26,024 nucleotides of DNA. It comes from a phage. Shown piece by piece: positions 143 to 14,888 of the stretch. Position 1 is the first letter of the stretch. Each line of letters opens with the position of its first letter. The stretch lies in NCBI GenBank assembly GCA_012702815.1, contig GCA_012702815.1_3927.1; one strand, written 5' to 3'. The notes under the pieces are model-generated. The model ran no database searches. It was not told where the DNA came from and was given only the letters and a program-made list of their open reading frames with translations. The position numbers and the translations under genes were made by a program.

Positions 143-187
143 TTTTTGCAGTAATGTATGAGGTTAATGATTTTAGAGGGAGTAAAA

Positions 188-2887
188 ATGGAAAACGTAG
201 ATTTTAAAAACTTACATTTAGTTGGTGATACAGAAACTGATGGTTTACTCCTTGAGTTCACTAAAGTGCACGTAATGGCTTTCGCAGACTATAAATCTGA
301 CGATGAAGAGCCACCTGTATGGGTCTTTACAGATGAGCCTATCCTCGGTCACAAGTACACTAAGTACATTAAGGGTGGTTTACGTGAAGGTGTTGAGTTT
401 GCGTTAAAGGCAAAACGACTTTGTATCCATAATGGTCTCGGTTATGACTGGTGGGTTTTCAATCACATTGCACCTGATTTATGGAACTTTGATAATCCAA
501 AGTGTAAGCCGTGGAGTAATTTCTTTCAGGATTCTCTTATCCAGTCTCGTGTTCAGTGGATGGATAGACCAACTCCAAAGGGTTATAAAGGTGCTCATGG
601 CTTGGCTGCATGGGGTGCTCGTGTTGGTGTTCGTAAACCAGAGATTGAACATTGGGGTGTATGGAATGCAGAAATCTTCACTCGTGTTGTGGAAGATATC
701 CGTATTAACGCCAAAACTAAACGCGCACTGGATAATGAGTATCTCAAGCTTAAGAAGTGTGGTATAGACACTTATGAAACCTACATGCGAGCTAAAGAGA
801 CATCTTTCTGGATGAGTCAACAAGCTATCAATGGTTGGAAAGCTGATAAAGAGCTTATGGAGTTCCATGTAAAGGAACTTGACAAGTTGACTAATGAGCT
901 TGCTTCAGAAGTTGAACCACATCTTCCTCCAACTATTAAGACCAAAGGTAAAGTCACTGGAGAAGAGTTTGCAAAAGCTTGGAATGAGTATGTTGAAGCA
1001 TTTGGTCACGCAGATGGACTGAAGAGAATTACCAAGTACCCTAAGACGAAGTATCGTCAGCAGGTACGTAACGGTGAGATGCAGACATATGAAATCAAGC
1101 CATTTGGTAAGCCAACTACAAAGATTTTTAACATTGAAAAGAGAAATTGCTATACACCAACCAACTCTGTAACTGGTGAAGAGTACAAGGAGGGTTTTGT
1201 AGCAATGAAGGATGCTCGTGCAATTTGCAATGAGTTGAATGCAAAGATTGGTAAGAAATGCAAAGACTGGAAGCCAGTAAAAACAGTTAAAACTGTGAAG
1301 TACTATAACAGTCATGTTGTTAACCACTTTGAGCTTGAGTCAAGTCGCTACACAGGATTGATTGATGCACCATATACACCAATTGAGTTTGAAGTTTCTC
1401 GTATGACTCAGGTAGCAGTTGTTAAAGACTACTTGAAATCAGTTGGTTGGATTCCAGATGACTGGAACTACAAGAAAGATTCAGACGGTCGCCCTGTCAA
1501 AGTTTGTCGTTTCAAAGACAACAAAAAGATGATTACAAAGCATCCTAAGTGGCAGGAGATGGTTGAACGGTGTGGGTTGAGTTATGTTGAACACGAAGGT
1601 GTCCAGTACATCGAACATAACTGGTCTGTGAAGAAGTACACGGATTTGCTTGAACCTTGCTTAATCCGTACTTCACCAAAACTTACTGAATCTTCTTATG
1701 ATACGATTGAAGGTGAGCTTGGACAGAAGATTGCTAAATACTATACTTTGATGCACCGACGCAGAACCATTGAGAACTCAAAGGATGATGAAAAAGGTTG
1801 GCTAAACCAGATTCGTCCAGATGGTCGCCTTAGTGCTGGTGCAATGGTATTTGGTACTTCAACTGGACGTATGACACAATATGGTATTGTAAACGTACCG
1901 TCTGGTGCTGCTGTCTATGGGGAACCAATGAGGGCAGTGTGGATTTGTGAAGAAGGTACTAACGTTGTCTCTGTAGACATGAACTCAGCCCAGCTAGTTC
2001 TCCTTTGTAACTTTATGGGTGACAAAGACTTCACCAAAGCGGTAACGCAAGGTAAAGAAGAGATTGAGTTTATTCGTCAAGAAGATGGACGCTATTACTG
2101 CAAACACTTTGATGAGTACCTCAACCCAGAGATTGATAAGTACCTTCGTTATGACTCTGAGAATGACCTGTACGTTGTCTATTCAGGGACTGATGCACAT
2201 ACACTGAATAGTATTTACTTTAGCTTGAATGATGAGCAGGACATCTTGACTTGTCGTGCTACTCAGGATGAGAACCTTCTTCATGAGATTAGTAAGGGTC
2301 GTAAGAAAGCTAAGAATGGTATCTATGCACTGCTGTTCGGTGCAGGTGATGAGAAGTTTGCTAAGACGATTAAGGCTGCAACTACTCAGGAAGGTGCGCT
2401 GACTAAACAGACTTACTTTATCCGTTTGCCTAAAATTAAGAAGTTGCTAGATGACTTGGAAGCTGACTACAAAGCGACTAAAAAGGCACTTGAAGAGGTT
2501 TTTGGTAAGACCGCTGCAATCTCTAAAGGGGGATTTGTAAAGGTTGCTGGAGCTTGGTTGTGGTGTAAATCTCCACACAAACTGTTGAACTATCTTTTGA
2601 TGGGTTCAGAGGCTCAGATTCAAAATGAGGCAATTAACCTTGCTTGTCGTCGTATGATTGACGAAGGTTTGATGAAGTTAAATGGTCGTAAACCAGCTAT
2701 TGGTGCTCGTTTGCTCTGCGCATATCACGATGAAACAAGCTGGGAATGTCCAGAAAGTATGACGGCAGAAGTGAAAGCAGTTACTGACTGGTATTATGGA
2801 CAAGCTTCTAAGAATTTAGGTCTTAAGAAAGAAACACTTGTAACAGGTACTGGTAAGGTTGGTAAAAGCTGGCTTGAAGTGCACTAA
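188..2887 (+). CDS. DNA polymerase, family A (Pol I / T7 gp5-like) with N-terminal 3'-5' exonuclease domain
   Basis: ORF 158..2887; start placed at ATG 188, 5 nt after GAGGGAG (176-182). Exo motifs DTETDG and HNGLGYDWW near the N-terminus; polymerase motif A (VSVDMNSAQL), motif B (KAKNGIYALLFGAGDEKFA) and motif C (YHDE) in the C-terminal half. Confidence 0.9.
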   Translation: MENVDFKNLHLVGDTETDGLLLEFTKVHVMAFADYKSDDEEPPVWVFTDEPILGHKYTKYIKGGLREGVEFALKAKRLCIHNGLGYDWWVFNHIAPDLWNFDNPKCKPWSNFFQDSLIQSRVQWMDRPTPKGYKGAHGLAAWGARVGVRKPEIEHWGVWNAEIFTRVVEDIRINAKTKRALDNEYLKLKKCGIDTYETYMRAKETSFWMSQQAINGWKADKELMEFHVKELDKLTNELASEVEPHLPPTIKTKGKVTGEEFAKAWNEYVEAFGHADGLKRITKYPKTKYRQQVRNGEMQTYEIKPFGKPTTKIFNIEKRNCYTPTNSVTGEEYKEGFVAMKDARAICNELNAKIGKKCKDWKPVKTVKTVKYYNSHVVNHFELESSRYTGLIDAPYTPIEFEVSRMTQVAVVKDYLKSVGWIPDDWNYKKDSDGRPVKVCRFKDNKKMITKHPKWQEMVERCGLSYVEHEGVQYIEHNWSVKKYTDLLEPCLIRTSPKLTESSYDTIEGELGQKIAKYYTLMHRRRTIENSKDDEKGWLNQIRPDGRLSAGAMVFGTSTGRMTQYGIVNVPSGAAVYGEPMRAVWICEEGTNVVSVDMNSAQLVLLCNFMGDKDFTKAVTQGKEEIEFIRQEDGRYYCKHFDEYLNPEIDKYLRYDSENDLYVVYSGTDAHTLNSIYFSLNDEQDILTCRATQDENLLHEISKGRKKAKNGIYALLFGAGDEKFAKTIKAATTQEGALTKQTYFIRLPKIKKLLDDLEADYKATKKALEEVFGKTAAISKGGFVKVAGAWLWCKSPHKLLNYLLMGSEAQIQNEAINLACRRMIDEGLMKLNGRKPAIGARLLCAYHDETSWECPESMTAEVKAVTDWYYGQASKNLGLKKETLVTGTGKVGKSWLEVH

Positions 2888-2893
2888 TTAGTA

Positions 2894-2929
2894 TTGACAA
2901 GGTACTCATGGAAGAGTACCTTGTACAAT
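2894..2929 (+). promoter_or_regulatory. candidate promoter/operator (TTGACAAG box, perfect 11-bp inverted repeat, TACAAT)
   Basis: TTGACAAG at 2894-2901; inverted repeat ACAAGGTACTC (2897-2907) / GAGTACCTTGT (2914-2924); TACAAT at 2924-2929; RBS and ATG 2949 follow. Confidence 0.35.
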
Positions 2930-2948
2930 ATCTTATATAGGAGGGCTT

Positions 2949-3158
2949 ATGAGCCACCGTGGAAGAACCCATGCAGCAATGATGAAAGGTGCTTCAAAGG
3001 AAACTATCAAGAATCGTAAGCAGAAGTTGTTTGAGAGAATAAACAGGTTGATTGACAATTCATCTCTTTCAGGTTCTGAGAAGGTTTTCTTGAAAGGTAA
3101 TCTGAAAAGCATTGCACAAGAACTTGTAGATATTGAATATTGGAGACATCAAAAATGA
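2949..3158 (+). CDS. hypothetical small basic protein
   Basis: ORF with strong RBS AGGAGG (2938-2943) about 5 nt upstream of the ATG; sits in a tightly packed same-strand gene series. Confidence 0.6.
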   Translation: MSHRGRTHAAMMKGASKETIKNRKQKLFERINRLIDNSSLSGSEKVFLKGNLKSIAQELVDIEYWRHQK

Positions 3159-3373
3159 CACTTGCAGACGTTATTCAGCAACTTCATGATAACTGCTACA
3201 CTCCAGAGTTAATTCAGGAGATGTCCATTATAGTCATGCCTAGCAAGTTCGTAAAAACCTTTAACAACGACGCTTTAAGGTCTACACACATCCTTATCGT
3301 TGACGGTAAGATTGCAAAAGACCGTACTGGAGTACTTAAAGGTGAACGTATTGATATTCTGGAGTTGCTATGA
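3155..3373 (+). CDS. hypothetical protein
   Basis: ORF 3140..3373; start preferred at ATG 3155, which forms an ATGA overlap with the upstream stop; GGAGA lies upstream. Confidence 0.5.
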   Translation: MTLADVIQQLHDNCYTPELIQEMSIIVMPSKFVKTFNNDALRSTHILIVDGKIAKDRTGVLKGERIDILELL

Positions 3374-3516
3374 AGAAAATGTACAGTCTCTGGGGAAGGG
3401 TTGGTAAAGGTTTTGACTGGACACTTCTTCGTTCAAACGTTAAACGTAGTGAATTACCAGAACTCATTACCCACTATTTAAAAACATACAGAGAGGTAGA
3501 CTATCGTGAACAATAA
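3370..3516 (+). CDS. hypothetical small protein (48 aa), absent from the supplied ORF track
   Basis: Uninterrupted frame ATG 3370 to TAA 3514-3516 (MKKMYSLWGRVGKGFDW...DYREQ). GGAG at 3361-3364; ATGA overlap with the upstream stop; fills an otherwise empty ~130 nt gap. Confidence 0.35.
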   Translation: MKKMYSLWGRVGKGFDWTLLRSNVKRSELPELITHYLKTYREVDYREQ

Positions 3517-3763
3517 GGTTAAGAGTTGTGTGAAAGCAATGGTTGCACTTGGAGTAATTTTTCTATCTGGCTGCAACCCCTCTTACGAGGACAAAAACGC
3601 TTCTTATAGCCTCCCACCAGAGATGCAAGATTGCAAAGTCTATAAGTTACATGGTGATGCCATAAGCAGAGATATTGTTGTTGTCAGATGTCCAAACTCT
3701 CAAACAACAACATCTTATAGTTATGGGAAAAATGGTCAATCACACACTACGGTTATTGAGTGA
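3506..3763 (+). CDS. putative lipoprotein (signal peptide with lipobox L-S-G-C)
   Basis: GTG start. N-terminus MNNKVKSCVKAMVALGVIFLSG-C has a basic n-region, hydrophobic core and lipobox LSGC with Cys at position 23. GAGAGG upstream. Confidence 0.6.
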   Translation: MNNKVKSCVKAMVALGVIFLSGCNPSYEDKNASYSLPPEMQDCKVYKLHGDAISRDIVVVRCPNSQTTTSYSYGKNGQSHTTVIE

Positions 3764-3773
3764 GGTTTTCACG

Positions 3774-3980
3774 ATGGAAGTCCTAGTAAACTATATCTAT
3801 TGTTATGATGTTGTTCACTCCACTACAACCGTAGCTCAACGTAACCCAATCGTCCCACGAGAAGGTGAGTTGGTTCGCATCGAGGGTTGGACTTACACTG
3901 TGGAAAGCATCATCCATAAGTTTGATGTTGCTGGTGATGTTCAGGTTATCGACGTAGAGATTGGTGGTAAGAGAAAATGA
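3774..3980 (+). CDS. hypothetical protein
   Basis: ORF 3675..3980 overlaps the lipoprotein gene; internal ATG 3774 preferred (GTGAGGT 8 nt upstream, no overlap). Stop overlaps the next ATG (ATGA). Confidence 0.5.
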   Translation: MEVLVNYIYCYDVVHSTTTVAQRNPIVPREGELVRIEGWTYTVESIIHKFDVAGDVQVIDVEIGGKRK

Positions 3981-4195
3981 CTGTAGAAGATAAATTTAAG
4001 AACGCAGTTCTTACAGAAGATGGTGAGCTTGAAACATTCATTCTTCGTGTTGATGGTAAGTTATTCCGGTGTCGTTGTGGGTCAAACTGTTTCCATAAAC
4101 CGGATAAAAATGACTTAGAGCTTTACGCATGTAATGCCTGCAATACTTGGTATCACTCAGAGGTGAAAAATGACAACACTGTACAAACAAAATAA
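3977..4195 (+). CDS. small zinc-ribbon-like protein (CxC...CxxC)
   Basis: Four cysteines arranged C-R-C ... C-N-A-C; translationally coupled to neighbours. Confidence 0.55.
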   Translation: MTVEDKFKNAVLTEDGELETFILRVDGKLFRCRCGSNCFHKPDKNDLELYACNACNTWYHSEVKNDNTVQTK

Positions 4196-5273
4196 AGACG
4201 GCTCTTTTAACGTCTGGTCATGCGTTGCTGTAGGTGACAAAGTTATTACAACCTACGGTAAAGAAAATGGCAAGATGATGTTTGAAGAGTATACAGCAGA
4301 ACCTAAAAACATCGGTAAAAAGAATGAGCGTAACGCTGAACAGCAAGCTCTCTTTGAAGTTGCTGCAAAGTATAAAAAGCAGGTTGACCGCAAAGGTTAT
4401 GCTTACACAAAAGAGTCTGCACAGAATACCGAGAAGGTAGGTGTACAGCTTGCTCATGATGCTGCAAAGGTTAGCCATGCAAAGTATCTGAAGTTCCCTG
4501 CTGATGCTCAACCGAAACTTGATGGTGTCCGTTGTAGGATTTCAAGGCACTTGAGTATTGGCAGTGTATTTACAGCATATTCTCGTGAGAATACTGTTTA
4601 CAAAATCCCTACTGAACTAATACCTGACATTATGGCAATGTTAAGGCTCCACAAAGATGTTGATGAATTTGATGGAGAGATTTATGCTCATGGGTGGGAC
4701 TTAGAAGATATCGTCTCCATGATTAAAAATGAAGACAATCCTGACAGACACCTACTCAAGTTTTACTGGTATGATATCTGTGACAGTACTAAGACGTGGC
4801 CTGAGCGTAGAGATATTATTGAGACTTCACCATTGAATGACTTCAGAGACGGCTGTAAAGTTGTCCCTGTTAAGTCTCGTCGTGTTAACTCTTGGGAAGA
4901 GTTTGATGAAGCTCATGATAAGTGGGTTGAAGCTAAGTTTGAAGGTGCAATGTACCGTTCAATCTCTGAAGACTCCTTCTATGAGTGTTGTCACCGTTCG
5001 TACTTCTTGATTAAGCACAAGAAGATGCACACTGAAGAGTTTAAAGTGACTGGTGTCAAGACTGATAAACGTGGTCATGGCAAGTTCGTTGTAGAGACTC
5101 TTCCTAATGTCTTTGTAGATGTCTCATGGAAGACTACTCATGAGAAGAAACAGTATCTTGCTGAGCATCCTGAAGAGTTTATCGGGAAACCTTTAACGGT
5201 ACAGTTCCAGAAGATGACTCGCAAGGGGTCTTTGCAGTTCCCTGTTGGACTAGTTATTCGAGACTACGAATAA
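4170..5273 (+). CDS. ATP-dependent DNA ligase
   Basis: Adenylation motif I KLDGVR (Lys about residue 116) and downstream FDGEIY motif. RBS AGAGGTG before ATG 4170. About 100 aa of extra N-terminal sequence relative to the minimal T7-type ligase. Confidence 0.85.
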   Translation: MTTLYKQNKDGSFNVWSCVAVGDKVITTYGKENGKMMFEEYTAEPKNIGKKNERNAEQQALFEVAAKYKKQVDRKGYAYTKESAQNTEKVGVQLAHDAAKVSHAKYLKFPADAQPKLDGVRCRISRHLSIGSVFTAYSRENTVYKIPTELIPDIMAMLRLHKDVDEFDGEIYAHGWDLEDIVSMIKNEDNPDRHLLKFYWYDICDSTKTWPERRDIIETSPLNDFRDGCKVVPVKSRRVNSWEEFDEAHDKWVEAKFEGAMYRSISEDSFYECCHRSYFLIKHKKMHTEEFKVTGVKTDKRGHGKFVVETLPNVFVDVSWKTTHEKKQYLAEHPEEFIGKPLTVQFQKMTRKGSLQFPVGLVIRDYE

Positions 5274-5280
5274 AAAGTTG

Positions 5281-5308
5281 TTGACATAGAAAATTTGGTG
5301 AGTATACT
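5281..5308 (+). promoter_or_regulatory. sigma70-like promoter candidate (TTGACA - 16 nt - TATACT)
   Basis: TTGACA at 5281-5286 and TATACT at 5303-5308, in the intergenic region after the ligase gene; a 9-bp inverted repeat (5296-5304 / 5329-5337) flanks the -10 and predicted start site. Confidence 0.5.
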
Positions 5309-5341
5309 GAGCAGCATAAACCAACGGGTACTCACCAGCAT

Positions 5342-5500
5342 CACTTAAGAGTCTTTCTAAGAGGGTTTTTAAGTAATGTGATGTTTGGTTTGGTGTGGTC
5401 AGGTAATGTGATGTCTGGTTTAGTGCGGTGATGTGCGGTCCGGTAAGGTCCGGTGCGGTAAAGTGCGGGTAGTTAGTCTCAGCTACATTAAAATGAGACT
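5342..5500 (+). repeat. composite repeat module A1 (type-1 header + 19 phased pentamers + hairpin)
   Basis: Header CACTTAAGAGTCTTTCTAAGAGGGTTTTTAAGT (5342-5374); NGTNN pentamers in unbroken 5-nt phase 5377-5471; hairpin AGTCTCA / TGAGACT with loop GCTACATTAAAA (5475-5500), followed by TACC TTTTT. Confidence 0.8.
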
Positions 5501-5504
5501 TACC

Positions 5505-5633
5505 TTTTTAAAAGGTCTTTAAGAGGGTCTTTTAATAAGGTGCTGTATGGTAAGGTGATGTCTGGTGTGGTAGGGTGAGGTTAAGTGAGGTGAGGTATGG
5601 GTGGATGGTAGTAGCCACGTTAAAAATCTACCA
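5505..5633 (+). repeat. composite repeat module A2 (type-2 header + 12 phased pentamers + hairpin)
   Basis: Header TTTTTAAAAGGTCTTTAAGAGGGTCTTTTAATAAGGT (5505-5541); phased pentamers 5539-5598; hairpin TGGTAG / CTACCA with 16-nt loop TAGCCACGTTAAAAAT (5606-5633). A degenerate third header copy follows at about 5642-5668. Confidence 0.8.
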
Positions 5634-5690
5634 AGTTTCTAAAGAGTCTTCTGTTGAGGGTTCTTTACAAACAACTTAACAATCAACTAA

Positions 5691-6296
<606 letters not shown>

Positions 6297-6298
6297 TT

Positions 6299-6739
6299 AT
6301 GAATACAAAAGCATTAGCAGCAAAGTTTAGTTACGGTGACACTGTATCACACTCTGAGATGGACACCTTCTTAGGTATTGTGAAGCCAACTTATCAAGGT
6401 GACATTGTTAAGTACGAAGATGAAATGAAGGCTTATGCGCTTACACGTCTAAACCGACTTGAAAAGTTTATTGAAAAACTTCTTAAAGAAGAGAAGATTT
6501 ATCTGGTTGCTTCAATGGGTGTTGGTTATCGTGTGGTTGAACCTAAGCATCAAGCAACTATTGCAAAACGCAAAATGTCTGGTAAGATTGGTCGTGCTTT
6601 AAAGCAAGCCACTCAAGCGATTGAGAATGTGAACACTATGGCACTTAGTCATCAAGAACGTTCACGACTGATTGAACAGCAAAATCACTTAGCTGCTATG
6701 AAAGCTAATATTAACAAGCAACGCAGAAAACCTTTCTAA
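6299..6739 (+). CDS. hypothetical protein (second gene of repeat-bracketed cassette)
   Basis: Starts 2 nt after the upstream stop; followed by an intrinsic terminator at 6751-6773. Lys/Arg-rich C-terminus. Confidence 0.6.
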   Translation: MNTKALAAKFSYGDTVSHSEMDTFLGIVKPTYQGDIVKYEDEMKAYALTRLNRLEKFIEKLLKEEKIYLVASMGVGYRVVEPKHQATIAKRKMSGKIGRALKQATQAIENVNTMALSHQERSRLIEQQNHLAAMKANINKQRRKPF

Positions 6740-6750
6740 GTTGACTAGGT

Positions 6751-6773
6751 AGCCTCTTCGGAGGCTCCTTTTT
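6751..6773 (+). terminator. intrinsic terminator after the two-gene cassette
   Basis: Stem AGCCTC / GAGGCT with TTCG tetraloop (6751-6766), then CC and TTTTT (6769-6773). Confidence 0.6.
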
Positions 6774-7058: not shown

Positions 7059-7093
7059 TTGACAAGTCAGGTGTTATAGCTTATTTTTATACT
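7059..7093 (+). promoter_or_regulatory. candidate promoter (TTGACAAG box - 23 nt - TATACT) inside a 9-bp inverted repeat
   Basis: TTGACAAG at 7059-7066, TATACT at 7088-7093; inverted repeat AAGCTATAA (7044-7052) / TTATAGCTT (7074-7082) brackets the TTGACA box. Confidence 0.35.
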
Positions 7094-7131: not shown

Positions 7132-7515
7132 ATGAAAAAGATTTTATTAGCTGCTGCAATGGTTATGGCAATGAATTTACCAGTCAATGCAACAGAACTT
7201 CCAAATGTGGACTTATCAGGTGTTCCAGAAGACACTTGTCAGATTGTTAAAGGTGTTGCTTTGACTAATGGTGAGTTACTTAAACCAATCTCTGAAGAGT
7301 CTTTAACAGAGATGACTGATAAGGTAACTGACTATCAGTATCGTGTTCTTGCAGAGTATTTCCTGCAATCTGCAAATATTAAAGAGAAGCACCATGATGA
7401 TATTGATGTACAGGCCATGATTAACCATCGTATTCAGTTTAAAGAAGATTTGATGCAAAAAGCTATGTATGGTGTTGAGTATTTCTTAGAAAACAGAAGC
7501 TGCACAGGTATTTAA
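7132..7515 (+). CDS. putative secreted/periplasmic protein with Sec signal peptide
   Basis: N-terminus MKKILLAAAMVMAMNLPVNA-TE: basic n-region, hydrophobic core, AXA-like cleavage site VNA. RBS GAGGT upstream. Confidence 0.6.
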   Translation: MKKILLAAAMVMAMNLPVNATELPNVDLSGVPEDTCQIVKGVALTNGELLKPISEESLTEMTDKVTDYQYRVLAEYFLQSANIKEKHHDDIDVQAMINHRIQFKEDLMQKAMYGVEYFLENRSCTGI

Positions 7516-10625: not shown

Positions 10626-10661
10626 GGCTCCTTTTTACGGGAGCCTTAAAATTTTATTTTT
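10626..10661. terminator. bidirectional intrinsic terminator at the convergence of + and - strand gene blocks
   Basis: Stem GGCTCC (10626-10631) / GGAGCC (10640-10645), flanked by an A-run on the left and a T-rich run on the right. Confidence 0.6.
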
Positions 10662-11025
10662 CAGTATTCTTTGTGTTCTTTTCAGTAATAGCTTGCAAGG
10701 CTGATACTGATTGGGCCAGATTGTTCACACTGTCAGAGAATTTATCAAGAGTTTTGGTAAGTTTCGCATTCTCACCCTTAACATTCTCTAACTGGACTTT
10801 CTGGTTCTCCATCCCTATCTGAATCAGTCTCATGTCAGACTGTAAATCACGAATAGCTGAATAGTTACTTTTGGAATAATTATCTAGCTGCTGTAACTTT
10901 GTTGTGACAGACACTTCTTGCTTACCACTTGAAACTTGCATAGTGGTATACATCCCAATAACACTAAAAATACCAACTACAATTGCACCAATATTATTTT
11001 TAAAAGCTTCCTCTAGCCACTTCAT
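10654..11025 (-). CDS. membrane protein with N-terminal transmembrane helix and coiled-coil (spanin-like or holin-associated)
   Basis: Hydrophobic segment NIGAIVVGIFSVIGMYTTM followed by a heptad-rich, Q/L/K-rich domain. RBS GGGGGAGA; start abuts the stop of the upstream gene. Confidence 0.5.
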   Translation of the reverse strand: MKWLEEAFKNNIGAIVVGIFSVIGMYTTMQVSSGKQEVSVTTKLQQLDNYSKSNYSAIRDLQSDMRLIQIGMENQKVQLENVKGENAKLTKTLDKFSDSVNNLAQSVSALQAITEKNTKNTEK

Positions 11026-11220
11026 TTATTTCTCCCCCTTAAAAGCTTTTTCTAAGTTATCTACGAACTCATCATCAATAGGTGTGTCTGTTTTACTCGC
11101 AAGGTATCTTGCAAGCTTAAAGAACACTTTCTCAATCATGTATTCACTCAGAAGGGATAAAATGAGTTTCCAGAAGAAGCTACCTAGATTTTTTAGAAGA
11201 ATTGCTAGGATTGTAGGCAT
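11026..11220 (-). CDS. small membrane protein (holin-like candidate)
   Basis: 64 aa with one hydrophobic helix (TILAILLKNLGSFFWKLILSLL) and a charged C-terminus. Strong RBS GAGGTGA; candidate promoter just upstream at 11264-11292. Confidence 0.5.
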   Translation of the reverse strand: MPTILAILLKNLGSFFWKLILSLLSEYMIEKVFFKLARYLASKTDTPIDDEFVDNLEKAFKGEK

Positions 11221-11299: not shown

Positions 11300-13666
11300 T
11301 TAAGCAGTTCTTACCCAAGCCATTAACTTATAGAACTGGTTAGTAACACTAAATGCTGAACCAGAACCAGTACCACCTGTGTTACCGCTAACTGTGTGGC
11401 TGTGAGCACCAATACCAACAGTGTGGCTGTGGTTACCTGTTGTATTCGTTACACCAGACCAGTTTCTTGATGCGTTGAAGTTGACAGGGATACCATTAGT
11501 AAAGTTGTTACCAGTATACCCTTTAGAACCTGCCTGACTACCGAGGTAGAATGCACCACTTGCTGTGTAGAAGCTACTAGCGTCACTTCTGAAGTAACCA
11601 AATGAACCAGTAATCTCCATAGTACCTCTGTTGTGGTTGTGGTTACCAGTTGTGCTAGAAGTCTTAGTACCATAGTCAAATGATGAAGTAGTAGCAGAGA
11701 AGCTGTGCGTGTGTGAAGGTAAGTTACCAACAGACAACGTTACAGAGTCTGAACCACCAGTTGTAGCAACATCTGAACCGTTTGCTGCTGCAATTCTAAT
11801 AGTTCTACCAACACCATTATTCAGGTACGTCCAAGTTAACCCAGGAAGTGCTGTGTTTGGGTTGACATTACTGTTAAACCACGTCACAATACCTACTGGA
11901 TAGATTTTATTCAGGTCTGTAGAGTCACTAATCGCCTCTGCAATCTTCTGGTCAGTCTCTGCTTTAGTGTATGCACCAATTTCTGAAGGTGTTGGTTTCT
12001 GAGCTTCAGTGTAAACCTTAGACCATTCAGCCTCAAAACCATACCTATCTCTGGCTGTTCTATACCATAAACCACCATTCCTGTAATCAAATCTTAATTG
12101 TGCGGTTGGTGTTGATGCTAACATATTAGCGAACAGGTGTAAGACTAAACGGCTTGAACCACCACCATTGATAGTCTCTGCATAAATGCCTGAAGGTTGG
12201 TTCCAAGCAACACCACCATCAGACTCATTCACCAAAGCTCTGGCTGATGACCATAAGTACTTCGCATCGGTTGCCGATTTAACGTAGTATCTAGCATCTA
12301 AGTTAGAGAAATCTGAAGGTTGAACTTGTCCAGCAATAGTCAATGTTTTGTTAATGTATGATGTTGTATTCCCGAGAACCAATTGGGTTCCAGAATAACT
12401 GTTATTTAGGGTAACATCATTCGTGTCAGCACCACCAACACCTACCCACCACCTTGACACATTAGCAGTGTCCACACCACGGATATACAATGGTCTGTTC
12501 TGAGTAGAGTTTTTCACAATTAGGGCTTCATTATCCGTAACAACTTTCTGTACACCATTAAAAGTATTTTGTGCATTAGTTCTTGCAATTGTACTTAATG
12601 TTGCTGCCGGAATATATCTAGAGTCAATGTTAGCCCAATCTGAAGGTTGAACTTGACCAGTGATTTGCACAGTTTTATTGATACCAATAGTAGTACCTAG
12701 TGAAACCTGTGAACCTGTAAGGTAGTTATAAATGTTTAGACGTGTCTCGTCAGAATCTGTACCAACATACCATTTATTTGTTCCATCAGACTTCTTACCG
12801 AGAATGTAAAGTGCTGTATTTGCATCAGTATTCTGCAAAGTAATGGCATTAGCATTCTTCTTAGCAACAAGGTTAGTGAAAGTGTTAGCACCTGTAAAAG
12901 TATTATTGCCAGCTAACTGTGCAAATCTCTGATTAGCTGCCGTCTGAGTAAAGTATCTAGCATCTAAGTTAGAGAAATCAGAGGGTTGAACTTGACCAGT
13001 GATTGCTAAAGACTTATTAACAGAGACATTACTTGCAACAGTCAAGGCTGAGTTGTATTTGTTATTGTACAGCTTTACTTCGTCAGAGCCATTACTACCA
13101 ATACCAACCCACCATCTAGCCGAACCATCTAGGTTTACACCTTCGATATATTGTGCATTATTTGCATTTTGGTTTCTAAGGCGAAGTAAGTTAGCATCAC
13201 CTTGAATATTTTGAGTTCCAGAGAATGTGTTTGTGATAGCAAGTCTTGCGTATCTTGCATCATTCTCTTCATTAGTCCTCATACCAAGCTCATTAGGACT
13301 TGGCTTATTCAGAGTATGATAAACAGTTGCTGACCTTGAAGCATCTGCAATAGTTAGTTTAAGACCATTTGCGTTAATTTTAAAAGTCTTTAAAATATCC
13401 CCAATAGTAATCTCAGAAGAGCCTGTAGGGTCAAATACAGACTTTCCACCGTAAAGTAACTTGACAATACCTAAATCCCCAGTCATAGTGCTTCCAGCAA
13501 TCTGAACAAACCTTTCTAGTTTGAAGGAAGCTAAGAAGTCTTGATAGGTCATTCTACGGTCTTCATCACCCAACATTTCAGGTCTTTTCTTAACTCTGAT
13601 GTGCAATAGGTCTTCTGAACGAATTGTGTCGATTGAGTTTAATTGACTCAATTTGTAATCTGCCAT
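11300..13666 (-). CDS. tail fibre protein (long), three internal ~110 aa repeats and C-terminal HxH-rich tip
   Basis: 788 aa. Three repeats each containing ITGQVQPSD(F/W)(S/A)N(L/I)D(A/S)RY; collar-like segment IYPVGIVTWF; four HxH motifs (SHTHS, NHNHN, NHSHT, AHSHT); C-terminus shared with the adjacent fibre. Confidence 0.85.
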   Translation of the reverse strand: MADYKLSQLNSIDTIRSEDLLHIRVKKRPEMLGDEDRRMTYQDFLASFKLERFVQIAGSTMTGDLGIVKLLYGGKSVFDPTGSSEITIGDILKTFKINANGLKLTIADASRSATVYHTLNKPSPNELGMRTNEENDARYARLAITNTFSGTQNIQGDANLLRLRNQNANNAQYIEGVNLDGSARWWVGIGSNGSDEVKLYNNKYNSALTVASNVSVNKSLAITGQVQPSDFSNLDARYFTQTAANQRFAQLAGNNTFTGANTFTNLVAKKNANAITLQNTDANTALYILGKKSDGTNKWYVGTDSDETRLNIYNYLTGSQVSLGTTIGINKTVQITGQVQPSDWANIDSRYIPAATLSTIARTNAQNTFNGVQKVVTDNEALIVKNSTQNRPLYIRGVDTANVSRWWVGVGGADTNDVTLNNSYSGTQLVLGNTTSYINKTLTIAGQVQPSDFSNLDARYYVKSATDAKYLWSSARALVNESDGGVAWNQPSGIYAETINGGGSSRLVLHLFANMLASTPTAQLRFDYRNGGLWYRTARDRYGFEAEWSKVYTEAQKPTPSEIGAYTKAETDQKIAEAISDSTDLNKIYPVGIVTWFNSNVNPNTALPGLTWTYLNNGVGRTIRIAAANGSDVATTGGSDSVTLSVGNLPSHTHSFSATTSSFDYGTKTSSTTGNHNHNRGTMEITGSFGYFRSDASSFYTASGAFYLGSQAGSKGYTGNNFTNGIPVNFNASRNWSGVTNTTGNHSHTVGIGAHSHTVSGNTGGTGSGSAFSVTNQFYKLMAWVRTA
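12259..13219 (-). repeat. three tandem ~330 bp intragenic repeats within the long tail fibre gene
   Basis: Near-identical ~48 nt cores at about 12291-12340 and 12953-13005 and a related core at about 12641-12667, encoding repeated QVQPSDFSNLDARY segments. Confidence 0.7.
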
Positions 13667-13681
13667 TATAAGTTTTCCTCT

Positions 13682-13701
13682 TAAAAGGGGCTATAAAGCC
13701 C
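13682..13701 (-). terminator. hairpin plus T-run between the two tail fibre genes (possible attenuator)
   Basis: GGGGCT (13686-13691) / AGCCCC (13696-13701) with a 4-nt loop; on the - strand it is followed by TTTT, then the RBS and ATG of the distal fibre gene. Confidence 0.4.
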
Positions 13702-13712
13702 CTGTAAAGAAA

Positions 13713-14888
13713 TTAAGCTGTTCTCTGCCACACATACACTACAAAAGATGGCTGCTCAACACTGAATGCTTGACCACCACCAACAGAACCAGTTGTCCCT
13801 GAGTGTGTATGCTCAGAGCTAGAAACAGTAACAGTGCCTGTATGACTGTGCGAACCAATATTAACAGTGTGGCTGTGAGCACCAATTGCGACAGTATGAC
13901 TATGAGCACCAGATGATGCAGTTGTACCTGAGAAGCTATGGGTGTGAGCACCAGCTAAATCAGTATACATAGCATTACCAACACCAGCATCAGCAGATGC
14001 AGTAATAGCATTTGTGCCACCCCTATCATTACCCCTCATAGGAACTCTATGGTTGTGGTTACCAGCATTACTTGTTGTGCCACTAAACGTGTGAGTGTGA
14101 GCACCAGCACTATTAGTCGTTTTTGTACCGTAATCAAAAGTTGATGTGCTTTTTGAACCATAATCAAAACTAGAGATAGATACACTTGCAGAGTGTGTAT
14201 GACCACCACCTGTTAGGTAGATAGAGTGAGTATGTGCTGGTAAATTATTATTTGTTAATGCTACAGTCTGAGAACCAAACATTGAACCAACAGGTCTAGA
14301 ATCTGTATCATAACCAACTAGTGCCCTACCTTTAGAAACTAACTCCCAAGTGCCACCACAAAGCAAGTAAGTGGATGGGTTAGCAGAGTTAACAGACAGA
14401 TGAATAGTCCCCACTGGATATGATGCTTGGATAGCTTTGTATAAGTTATTCACTGCTCTCGCTGTAGCATACTTATCAGCATCTTCATTGTACAGATTAG
14501 ATGTTGTCCAGTTCTGAACATTACTTAAACCAACCTGTGCTTTCGTTGTATTGTGTGGGTTACTTTTGTCGTCAATATGTTGCTGAATTAAGTTATTCAC
14601 TTCCTCTGACGACATAATTTGTAGATTTGCTCTTGCCTCAGCAACATTCACAATGTCTGACAAGTTATTAGCTGCAACTAATTGAAGAGAGTTAATAACA
14701 TTATCAAGACCCACTTGTGATTTAGTTACACCATGAGGATTATTCCTCAGAGATGCGTGAGGTGCTAACAACTGCTCAAGCGTACATCTTTTATCCTCAA
14801 CACCTTGCTTAAGGTGGAAGATATCACTCAAATCAATTGGTAAGGCCGCTTGTGGCAAGGCACTAATTTGAATTTCACCTACTGCCAT
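13713..14888 (-). CDS. tail fibre protein with collar-like domain and nine HxH motifs
   Basis: 391 aa. Repeats NPHGVTKSQVGLDNV and NPHNTTKAQVGLSNV; collar-like YPVGTIHLSV...LLCGGTWEL; nine HxH motifs; C-terminus AFSVEQPSFVVYVWQRTA. Confidence 0.85.
   Translation of the reverse strand: MAVGEIQISALPQAALPIDLSDIFHLKQGVEDKRCTLEQLLAPHASLRNNPHGVTKSQVGLDNVINSLQLVAANNLSDIVNVAEARANLQIMSSEEVNNLIQQHIDDKSNPHNTTKAQVGLSNVQNWTTSNLYNEDADKYATARAVNNLYKAIQASYPVGTIHLSVNSANPSTYLLCGGTWELVSKGRALVGYDTDSRPVGSMFGSQTVALTNNNLPAHTHSIYLTGGGHTHSASVSISSFDYGSKSTSTFDYGTKTTNSAGAHTHTFSGTTSNAGNHNHRVPMRGNDRGGTNAITASADAGVGNAMYTDLAGAHTHSFSGTTASSGAHSHTVAIGAHSHTVNIGSHSHTGTVTVSSSEHTHSGTTGSVGGGQAFSVEQPSFVVYVWQRTA

Follow-up and report, generated by a model that had tools for sequence, protein, structure and literature searches.

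A DUF4884-family lipoprotein gene from the replication module of a Felix O1-like phage and its possible role in receptor-independent exclusion

The Llp lipoprotein of phage T5 plugs FhuA from the periplasmic side; its mature form has 62 residues in one helix and four strands with a C11-C58 disulfide, and its gene, llp, adjoins the receptor-binding gene oad/pb5. Rtp45 acts in an equivalent way by blocking LptDE, the own receptor of the LptD-binding small siphophages, and the Rtp exclusion factor has been described as an accessory protein adjacent to the receptor-binding protein (RBP) (bioRxiv 10.64898/2026.04.02.716166). T4 Spackle (Sp) is made early, is exported to the periplasm and acts there alone and independently of the receptor. 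The o-spanins (lambda Rz1; Felix O1 p015) are small outer-membrane lipoproteins of phages infecting Gram-negative hosts. Here we describe a lipoprotein gene at 3506..3763 on the + strand of a 26,024-nucleotide stretch of phage DNA (GenBank assembly GCA_012702815.1, contig GCA_012702815.1_3927.1; "the window" hereafter means this whole stretch), for which the initial annotation had proposed masking of the phage receptor as by Llp. We find a conserved small lipoprotein of the DUF4884 (PHROG 902) family whose features speak against Llp-type masking, and for which exclusion of another kind is a possible role. The gene and its signal region are laid out as follows:

3506..3763, stop included (+): lipoprotein-precursor coding sequence, an open reading frame (ORF) of 85 amino acids (aa); Felix O1 ORF91 homolog, PHROG 902 / DUF4884
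3491..3496 (+): Shine-Dalgarno sequence GAGAGG, 9 nt 5' of the GTG start, read from the sequence
3506..3571 (+): signal peptide, residues 1-22 (n-region MNNKVKSCVK, h-region AMVALGVIFL, then S-G), read from the sequence
3530..3532 (+): alternative in-frame GTG start, whose product would be MKAMVALGVIFLSGC...
3563..3574 (+): lipobox L20-S21-G22-C23, with the Cys23 codon (3572-3574) as the predicted lipid-attachment site

The proposed 85-aa lipoprotein with a signal peptide and the lipobox LSGC was confirmed. When a stringent lipoprotein-signal pattern was scanned against all 512 start-resolved ORFs of at least 40 aa in the window (both strands, six frames), it matched one reading frame alone, that of the 3506 ORF, from either of its starts. 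The ORF begins with GTG, and its precursor reads MNNKVKSCVKAMVALGVIFLSG, followed by C23 of CNPSYE... The n-region of the signal peptide contains three Lys and the hydrophobic h-region comprises 10 residues; signal peptidase II is predicted to cut N-terminal to Cys23. Sec export, lipidation on Cys23 and cleavage are likewise predictions from the signal sequence. Many relatives are annotated at 78 aa with a start near the 3530 GTG, and the mature lipoprotein is identical from either start. The Shine-Dalgarno sequence and the GTG are unchanged in Felix O1, SP22 and Mushroom, and the CPT annotation of Mushroom has a ribosome-binding site at the GAGAGG position.

The ORF is a genuine gene. Compared with Felix O1, six non-synonymous and 19 synonymous differences give a ratio of non-synonymous to synonymous rates (dN/dS) of 0.065, indicating strong purifying selection. 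One could suspect a chance ORF with a fortuitous lipobox, given its small size, its GTG start and an 11-nt overlap with the upstream ORF. The conservation data refute this: apart from the low dN/dS and the conserved Shine-Dalgarno sequence, the protein belongs to a family of 1173 clusters with an invariant lipid-attachment Cys, and the phage records that annotate the ORF number more than 200 ("hypothetical protein" in all those inspected); Felix O1, SP22 and Mushroom each have it as a coding sequence. We consider the probability of a chance ORF to be close to nil. The observation of a lipoprotein gene is far beyond chance, and we are highly confident that the product is a conserved small lipoprotein as described.

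The window protein is identical to BBU53696.1 of phage SP22, and its Felix O1 counterpart is ORF91 (Felix01p170). Residues 2-83 match the PHROG 902 profile with E=1.7e-17, and a family-profile search of 1.84 billion representatives returned the 1173 clusters (50% identity, E<=0.001). Almost every homolog carries a precomputed Pfam DUF4884 (PF16225) tag, and so does the cluster representative with 91% identity. A local Pfam-A hmmscan reported PF16225 for none of 13 different proteins scanned, even at E<=10, a result at odds with the precomputed tags. Scans against Pfam, NCBIfam and PADLOC gave no domain other than the lipoprotein signal. Family members are ~75-110 aa long. C23, C43 and C62 are each invariant in 150/150 aligned members, the lipobox has [GA] at -1 in 97% and Leu at -3 in 80%, and P37, P63, G74 and K75, all present in the window protein, are kept in at least 90%. 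The spacing between Cys43 and Cys62 is 17-19 residues in 120 of the 129 members in which both motifs could be located. The window protein is thus an ordinary member, with no sequence feature that sets it apart; the family is large and already catalogued, is uncharacterised, and its copy in the window holds no surprise.

Homologs with 30-56% identity occur in Vibrio T5-like siphophages, in rV5-like myophages of E. coli, Klebsiella, Pectobacterium and Enterobacter, in Asteriusvirus and jumbo phages of Erwinia, Serratia and Yersinia, in Acinetobacter Saclayvirus and 45-kb myophages, in one Aeromonas Plateaulakevirus, and in T4-like phages of Acinetobacter and Aeromonas. When 185,579 species genomes of bacteria and archaea were scanned for the motif P-x-[EGD]-[LM]-[QK]-D-C-[KQR]-[VI]-Y, no relative turned up; the Bacteroides proteins that Pfam DUF4884 also includes would escape so narrow a motif. 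Asteriusvirus carries two divergent family paralogs 360 bp apart (5007-5258 and 5620-5895 in the analysed region of Escherichia phage fEgEco12). One jumbo-phage record labels the two paralogs "lytic conversion lipoprotein", and another labels its homolog "superinfection exclusion protein" (OQ718158.1 310413-310613).

Downstream of the lipidated Cys, the mature protein can be divided as follows:

3575..3604 (+): tether, residues 24-33 (NPSYEDKNAS), weakly conserved by column conservation
3605..3760 (+): conserved, predicted periplasmic domain, residues 34-85, delimited by family alignments and AlphaFold2 models
3632..3634 (+): Cys43 codon TGC, first half of the predicted disulfide, facing Cys62 at the base of the predicted beta2-beta3 hairpin
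3689..3691 (+): Cys62 codon TGT, second half of the predicted disulfide, inside the R-C-P-N-S motif

The domain is marked by two motifs, Y-x-L-P-x-E-[LM]-x-D-C-K-[IV]-Y (in the family signature also as the variant Y-x-L-P-x-[EG]-L-x-D-C-K-[IV]-Y) and V-V-R-C-P-N-S-x-T-[ST]-T-x-Y-x-x-G-K. AlphaFold2 was run with 50 and with 150 sequences and gave the same small five-strand beta meander both times at medium confidence (mean predicted local distance difference test score, pLDDT, ~65 in both runs; ~80 for residues 31-60). Within the domain, strands are predicted at residues ~44-49, 57-62, 65-73 and 76-82 of the precursor, and a short extra strand at residues 26-29 lies in the tether. Because Cys43 and Cys62 are both placed at the base of one hairpin in the models, they would probably form an intramolecular disulfide in the periplasm. 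The two further invariant Cys, together with the conserved polar and aromatic motifs, argue for a folded, disulfide-bonded periplasmic domain. The tether varies in length from 11 to 19 residues within the family.

In E. coli, the residue at +2, directly after the lipidated Cys, decides membrane sorting by the Lol system. By this rule, the Asn at +2 of the window protein predicts sorting to the outer membrane. The +2 residue is not constant in the family, and the rV5-like coliphage homologs have Asp-Gln at +2/+3, a classical inner-membrane retention signal in E. coli. This variability, including Asp-Gln, suggests a target that can be reached from either membrane. Asp-Ala after the lipidated Cys is more frequent than Asp-Gln, and its meaning for sorting is ambiguous.

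More than 150 genomes of Felix O1-like phages (Felixounavirus) match region 3000-4300 with 93-97% identity, those of Escherichia phages SP22 and KEP3 most closely. Over the first 10.6 kb, the + strand encodes DNA polymerase (158..2887), DNA ligase (4170..5273), dihydrofolate reductase and thymidylate synthase; from 10.6 kb on, the - strand encodes tail-fibre, baseplate and tail proteins, with the tail-fibre genes at 11300..14888. The lipoprotein gene lies between the polymerase and ligase genes on the same strand, its start and stop codons overlap with both neighbours, and no strong promoter was seen directly 5' of it. It probably shares a transcript with, and is translationally coupled to, the replication genes. 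The location among early genes that the initial annotation had stated therefore stands as far as the polymerase and ligase context goes, whereas "early" itself is read from position. The same kind of neighbourhood, with early or replication genes, surrounds the homologs of Felixounavirus, Vibrio T5-like, rV5-like, Asteriusvirus, Saclayvirus, Plateaulakevirus and T4-like phages. Across the nine lineages that were compared, no homolog adjoins tail or lysis genes, and no partner gene within 2.5 kb is conserved across lineages; the family gene travels alone.

How might such a lipoprotein act? Our best explanation, to which we give a probability of roughly 35%, is that a tethered beta domain works on a conserved component of the envelope, with exclusion as the favoured outcome. 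Sec would export the precursor, signal peptidase II would cleave it after lipidation of Cys23, and Lol would sort the lipoprotein to the outer membrane as predicted from Asn at +2. A tether of ~10 residues would then hold the ~50-residue beta domain, stapled by Cys43-Cys62, in the periplasm. There, the domain's binding partner might be a conserved component of the host's periplasm or envelope (or one of incoming phages), and not the phage's own receptor. The infected cell would be protected from secondary attack by receptor-independent exclusion at or after cell-wall penetration. The logic of such exclusion would be nearer to T4 Spackle than to T5 Llp, with a fold different from that of Spackle. 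A protein acting on the envelope, as had been proposed, is supported by the lipoprotein nature. A conserved envelope target is suggested, rather than the own receptor, because the gene is solitary and common to many unrelated virulent Gammaproteobacteria phages. In our assessment receptor-independent exclusion is tentatively the most likely role, although less likely than not. We rank it first because the non-spanin phage lipoproteins with a described function (Llp, Cor, Rtp45) are exclusion factors, and because the timing, as judged from position, fits and a homolog in the T4-like Acinetobacter phage Acj61 adjoins an annotated spackle gene (a single weak case).

Several points weigh against this explanation. 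Other periplasmic roles, namely control of lysis timing, takeover of an envelope machine or anti-defence, fit the data equally or almost as well. We infer early or middle expression from gene order and the replication-module position alone, and transcript data for the gene were not found. The medium AlphaFold2 confidence limits the power of fold comparisons. A literature search for experimental work on the DUF4884 / PHROG 902 family found none. Both functional labels in the jumbo-phage records appear to be analogies for which no supporting experiment was found. Finally, the adjacency to spackle in Acj61 is a single case, and the "spackle" annotation there is weak, as the gene product has no phmmer similarity to T4 Sp.

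Considering that the initial annotation had modelled the protein on T5 Llp, we compared the two directly. In both cases, the mature form is a small phage lipoprotein (63 aa in the window, 62 aa in Llp) that is beta-rich with one disulfide, is destined for the outer membrane and is made before the late phase; for the window protein the beta-rich fold, the disulfide and the destination are predicted and the timing is read from position. The same likeness extends to Cor of T1, phi80 and HK022. An hhalign comparison of full-length sequences with Llp gave a probability of 88%, with the match limited to the signal peptide and a short stretch. When the mature domains were aligned (150-sequence profile against the Llp family), the probability was 0.7% over 10 columns. 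Since removal of the signal peptides causes this drop, the 88% is a signal-peptide effect. It should be noted that the Llp profile was thin, with four close sequences from the homolog search, and that the test has low power, as Llp and Cor are themselves only 18-25% identical. Sequence and profile searches of the PDB gave signal-peptide matches only, the Llp chain 8a60_B being touched there alone (E=6.7). Fold searches with the medium-confidence models, which have low power, matched neither Llp nor another PDB fold, and BFVD returned family members only. The mature Cys pair of the window family is at positions 21 and 40, compared to C11-C58 in Llp. On this evidence homology to T5 Llp was rejected, and membership of the window protein in the Llp/Cor family is not supported.

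Genomic position and receptor biology also separate the window protein from receptor-masking lipoproteins of the Llp, Cor or Rtp45 type, which bind the periplasmic face of the phage's own outer-membrane receptor and make it unbindable for phage. Unlike llp and the gene of the Rtp factor, the lipoprotein gene is not beside an RBP gene; it lies ~7.5 kb from the tail-fibre genes on the opposite strand, and none of the homologs in the eight other lineages adjoins tail genes. It does not co-diverge with the fibres, being 92.9% identical to Felix O1, with neighbours at 87-100%, compared to 73-77% for the tail fibres. Felix O1 and its relatives are reported to target lipopolysaccharide (LPS) and no protein receptor (PMC8594841), and genome-wide screens assigned no protein receptor to Felixounavirus (bioRxiv 10.64898/2026.04.02.716166). 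The family as a whole is common to phages with unrelated receptors and is not confined to one receptor class. The Asp-Gln of the rV5-like coliphage homologs predicts retention in the inner membrane, and the plugging of an outer-membrane barrel does not sit easily with a domain able to work from either membrane. What speaks for masking is the likeness to Llp in size (~7 kDa), predicted outer-membrane sorting and apparently early expression, and two jumbo-phage records that label homologs in this sense. Moreover, Llp, Cor and Rtp45 are too divergent to be linked to each other by sequence, so that missing homology is not decisive. Rtp45 itself is a periplasmic lipoprotein of ~6-7 kDa which shows that such proteins can act on an essential, conserved outer-membrane machine; it differs in sitting beside the RBP gene and in blocking its own phage's receptor, and PDB searches detected no similarity to it. 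The Llp-like masking that had been proposed is thus not supported, and we regard it as improbable, whereas the protein may still exclude phages in a non-Llp way.

The o-spanins are the other obvious comparison. Here, the view taken initially, that the protein is not an o-spanin, holds true. A curated spanin census lists overlapping i-/o-spanin pairs for Felix O1, Mushroom and wV8, with coordinates 5330-5678 and 5571-5841 in Felix O1 (Kongari 2018 supplement). In SP22, the closest relative, the same pair is found at 5407-5917 (a 115-aa i-spanin and an 89-aa o-spanin with lipobox MSGC), ~55 kb from the ORF91 homolog. No i-spanin gene adjoins the lipoprotein gene, as neither flanking ORF (48 aa upstream, 68 aa downstream) contains a transmembrane segment. 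There was no PHROG spanin match for the lipoprotein. Its predicted folded beta domain and its place in the replication module, on the strand opposite the late genes, are further differences from o-spanins. The argument originally put forward, distance from a lysis cassette, is factually right, with no lysis gene nearby and the relatives' spanin pair far off, and weak as an argument against a spanin, because spanin genes of the T4 type also sit apart from the holin and endolysin genes. That same fact, the small size and predicted outer-membrane destination of the lipoprotein, and the still unidentified holin of Felix O1 are what would favour a lysis component, either the o-spanin or a second outer-membrane lysis lipoprotein. 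With the pair already present elsewhere in Felix O1 and SP22, the o-spanin was rejected, and we consider a lysis component of either kind very unlikely. The tail-fibre operon of the window ends with two small ORFs of membrane type: a 123-aa ORF at 10654..11025 (-) with an N-terminal transmembrane segment and a coiled coil weakly matches the Rz-like PHROG 739 (E=0.006) and also gives a DivIC-like hit; a 64-aa ORF at 11026..11220 (-) with a hydrophobic N-terminus matches PHROG 402.

A relation to T4 Spackle could at most be a functional analogy, judging by the sequences. Like Sp, the window protein would be exported to the periplasm early and act alone and independently of a receptor. Unlike Sp, which is soluble and has a signal-peptidase-I signal and no lipobox, it is a lipoprotein, and sequence searches of the PDB gave no Sp match, signal-peptide matches aside. 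In Acj61, the family member Acj61p058 lies directly 5' of the "spackle periplasmic" gene, near gene 61 (primase), at 3956-4546 of the region analysed. T4 has no DUF4884 gene at the corresponding position, and its gp61.4 is unrelated. In the T4-like phage PX29, the family member is found among small membrane-protein genes, and its neighbours have no similarity to Sp. A spackle link in T4-like phages was therefore seen in Acj61 only, and was rejected as a general feature.

Two further roles share most of the evidence for a periplasmic exclusion factor. The domain could bind a conserved periplasmic machine or a defence sensor (Tol-Pal, TonB, Lpt, BAM, Rcs or an envelope-sensing defence system) and serve takeover of the host envelope or anti-defence, with no effect on superinfection. 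The gene is solitary, early and widespread and its product has a conserved polar surface motif, all of which implies that the host target is conserved; the absence of bacterial relatives in the motif scan suits a phage-side factor; and in Saclayvirus a PspA/IM30 gene lies two genes 5'. No candidate target was identified, however, there is no PADLOC or NCBIfam relation, and the evidence is the same circumstantial evidence that underlies our best explanation. We regard this role as possible, leaning to doubtful. The protein might instead regulate lysis timing from the periplasm, either as a sensor for lysis inhibition or by inhibiting a peptidoglycan hydrolase so that the cell is not lysed too soon. 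The topology and early expression assigned to it would suit this, Felixounaviruses have rIIA/rIIB and an incompletely known lysis system, and the Acj61 homolog adjoins the annotated spackle gene. Against this, the gene was never found beside holin, endolysin or spanin genes in the nine lineages, and PDB searches gave no similarity to known antiholins or lysozyme inhibitors, so that we hold a timing regulator to be unlikely.

Beyond the single gene, we consider it a rather doubtful idea that the DUF4884 proteins form a new receptor-independent class of phage periplasmic effectors, solitary disulfide-stapled mini-domains on a lipid tether, with one conserved envelope machine of Gammaproteobacteria or the penetration apparatus of incoming phages as target. 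If they do, phages as diverse as Felix O1-like, rV5-like, T5-like, T4-like and jumbo phages could use them to close the envelope to competitors or to silence envelope defence. Felix O1-like, rV5-like and jumbo phages are common candidates for therapy and biocontrol, and all carry an uncharacterised DUF4884 lipoprotein. If the lipoprotein excludes phages or alters the envelope, interference between the components of a cocktail and the response of infected cells would be affected. A receptor-independent mechanism, if true, would join the short list of known phage exclusion proteins. The practical outcome is a correction: the gene should be described as encoding a DUF4884-family lipoprotein, neither an Llp-like receptor blocker nor a spanin. 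It is modestly interesting in itself, because the family is widespread in virulent therapy phages and unstudied.

Some other features of the window and of related genomes were observed. Neither transfer RNA nor Rfam features were found in the window. Only 61 nt (2887..2949) separate the DNA polymerase gene from the next ORF. At the equivalent position, Felix O1, SP22 and Mushroom have an HNH homing endonuclease gene, and the Mushroom polymerase is annotated in two pieces; the gap is a presence/absence polymorphism of the homing endonuclease. At 5694..6739 (+), two ORFs of 200 aa and 146 aa belong to PHROG 4652 and PHROG 5926, both families without an assigned function. The pair is present in Mushroom and absent from Felix O1 and SP22, whose ligase gene directly precedes the ORF87 homolog. 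This two-gene indel is flanked by a strong promoter-like site at 5281-5308 (11/12 matches) and a terminator-like hairpin at 6751-6766.

In Saclayvirus, the PspA/IM30-family membrane-stress gene two genes 5' of the family member was seen in Acinetobacter phage vB_AbaM_B09_Aci02-2 (2742-3440 of the region analysed). A second exported protein of the early region of the window is encoded at 7132..7515 (+). It has 127 aa and a Sec-type signal peptide, MKKILLAAAMVMAMNLPVNA, followed by TELP, matches PHROG 4332 and is the counterpart of Felix O1 ORF87. Its gene directly follows a promoter-like site at 7059-7087, downstream of the terminator-like hairpin at 6751-6766.

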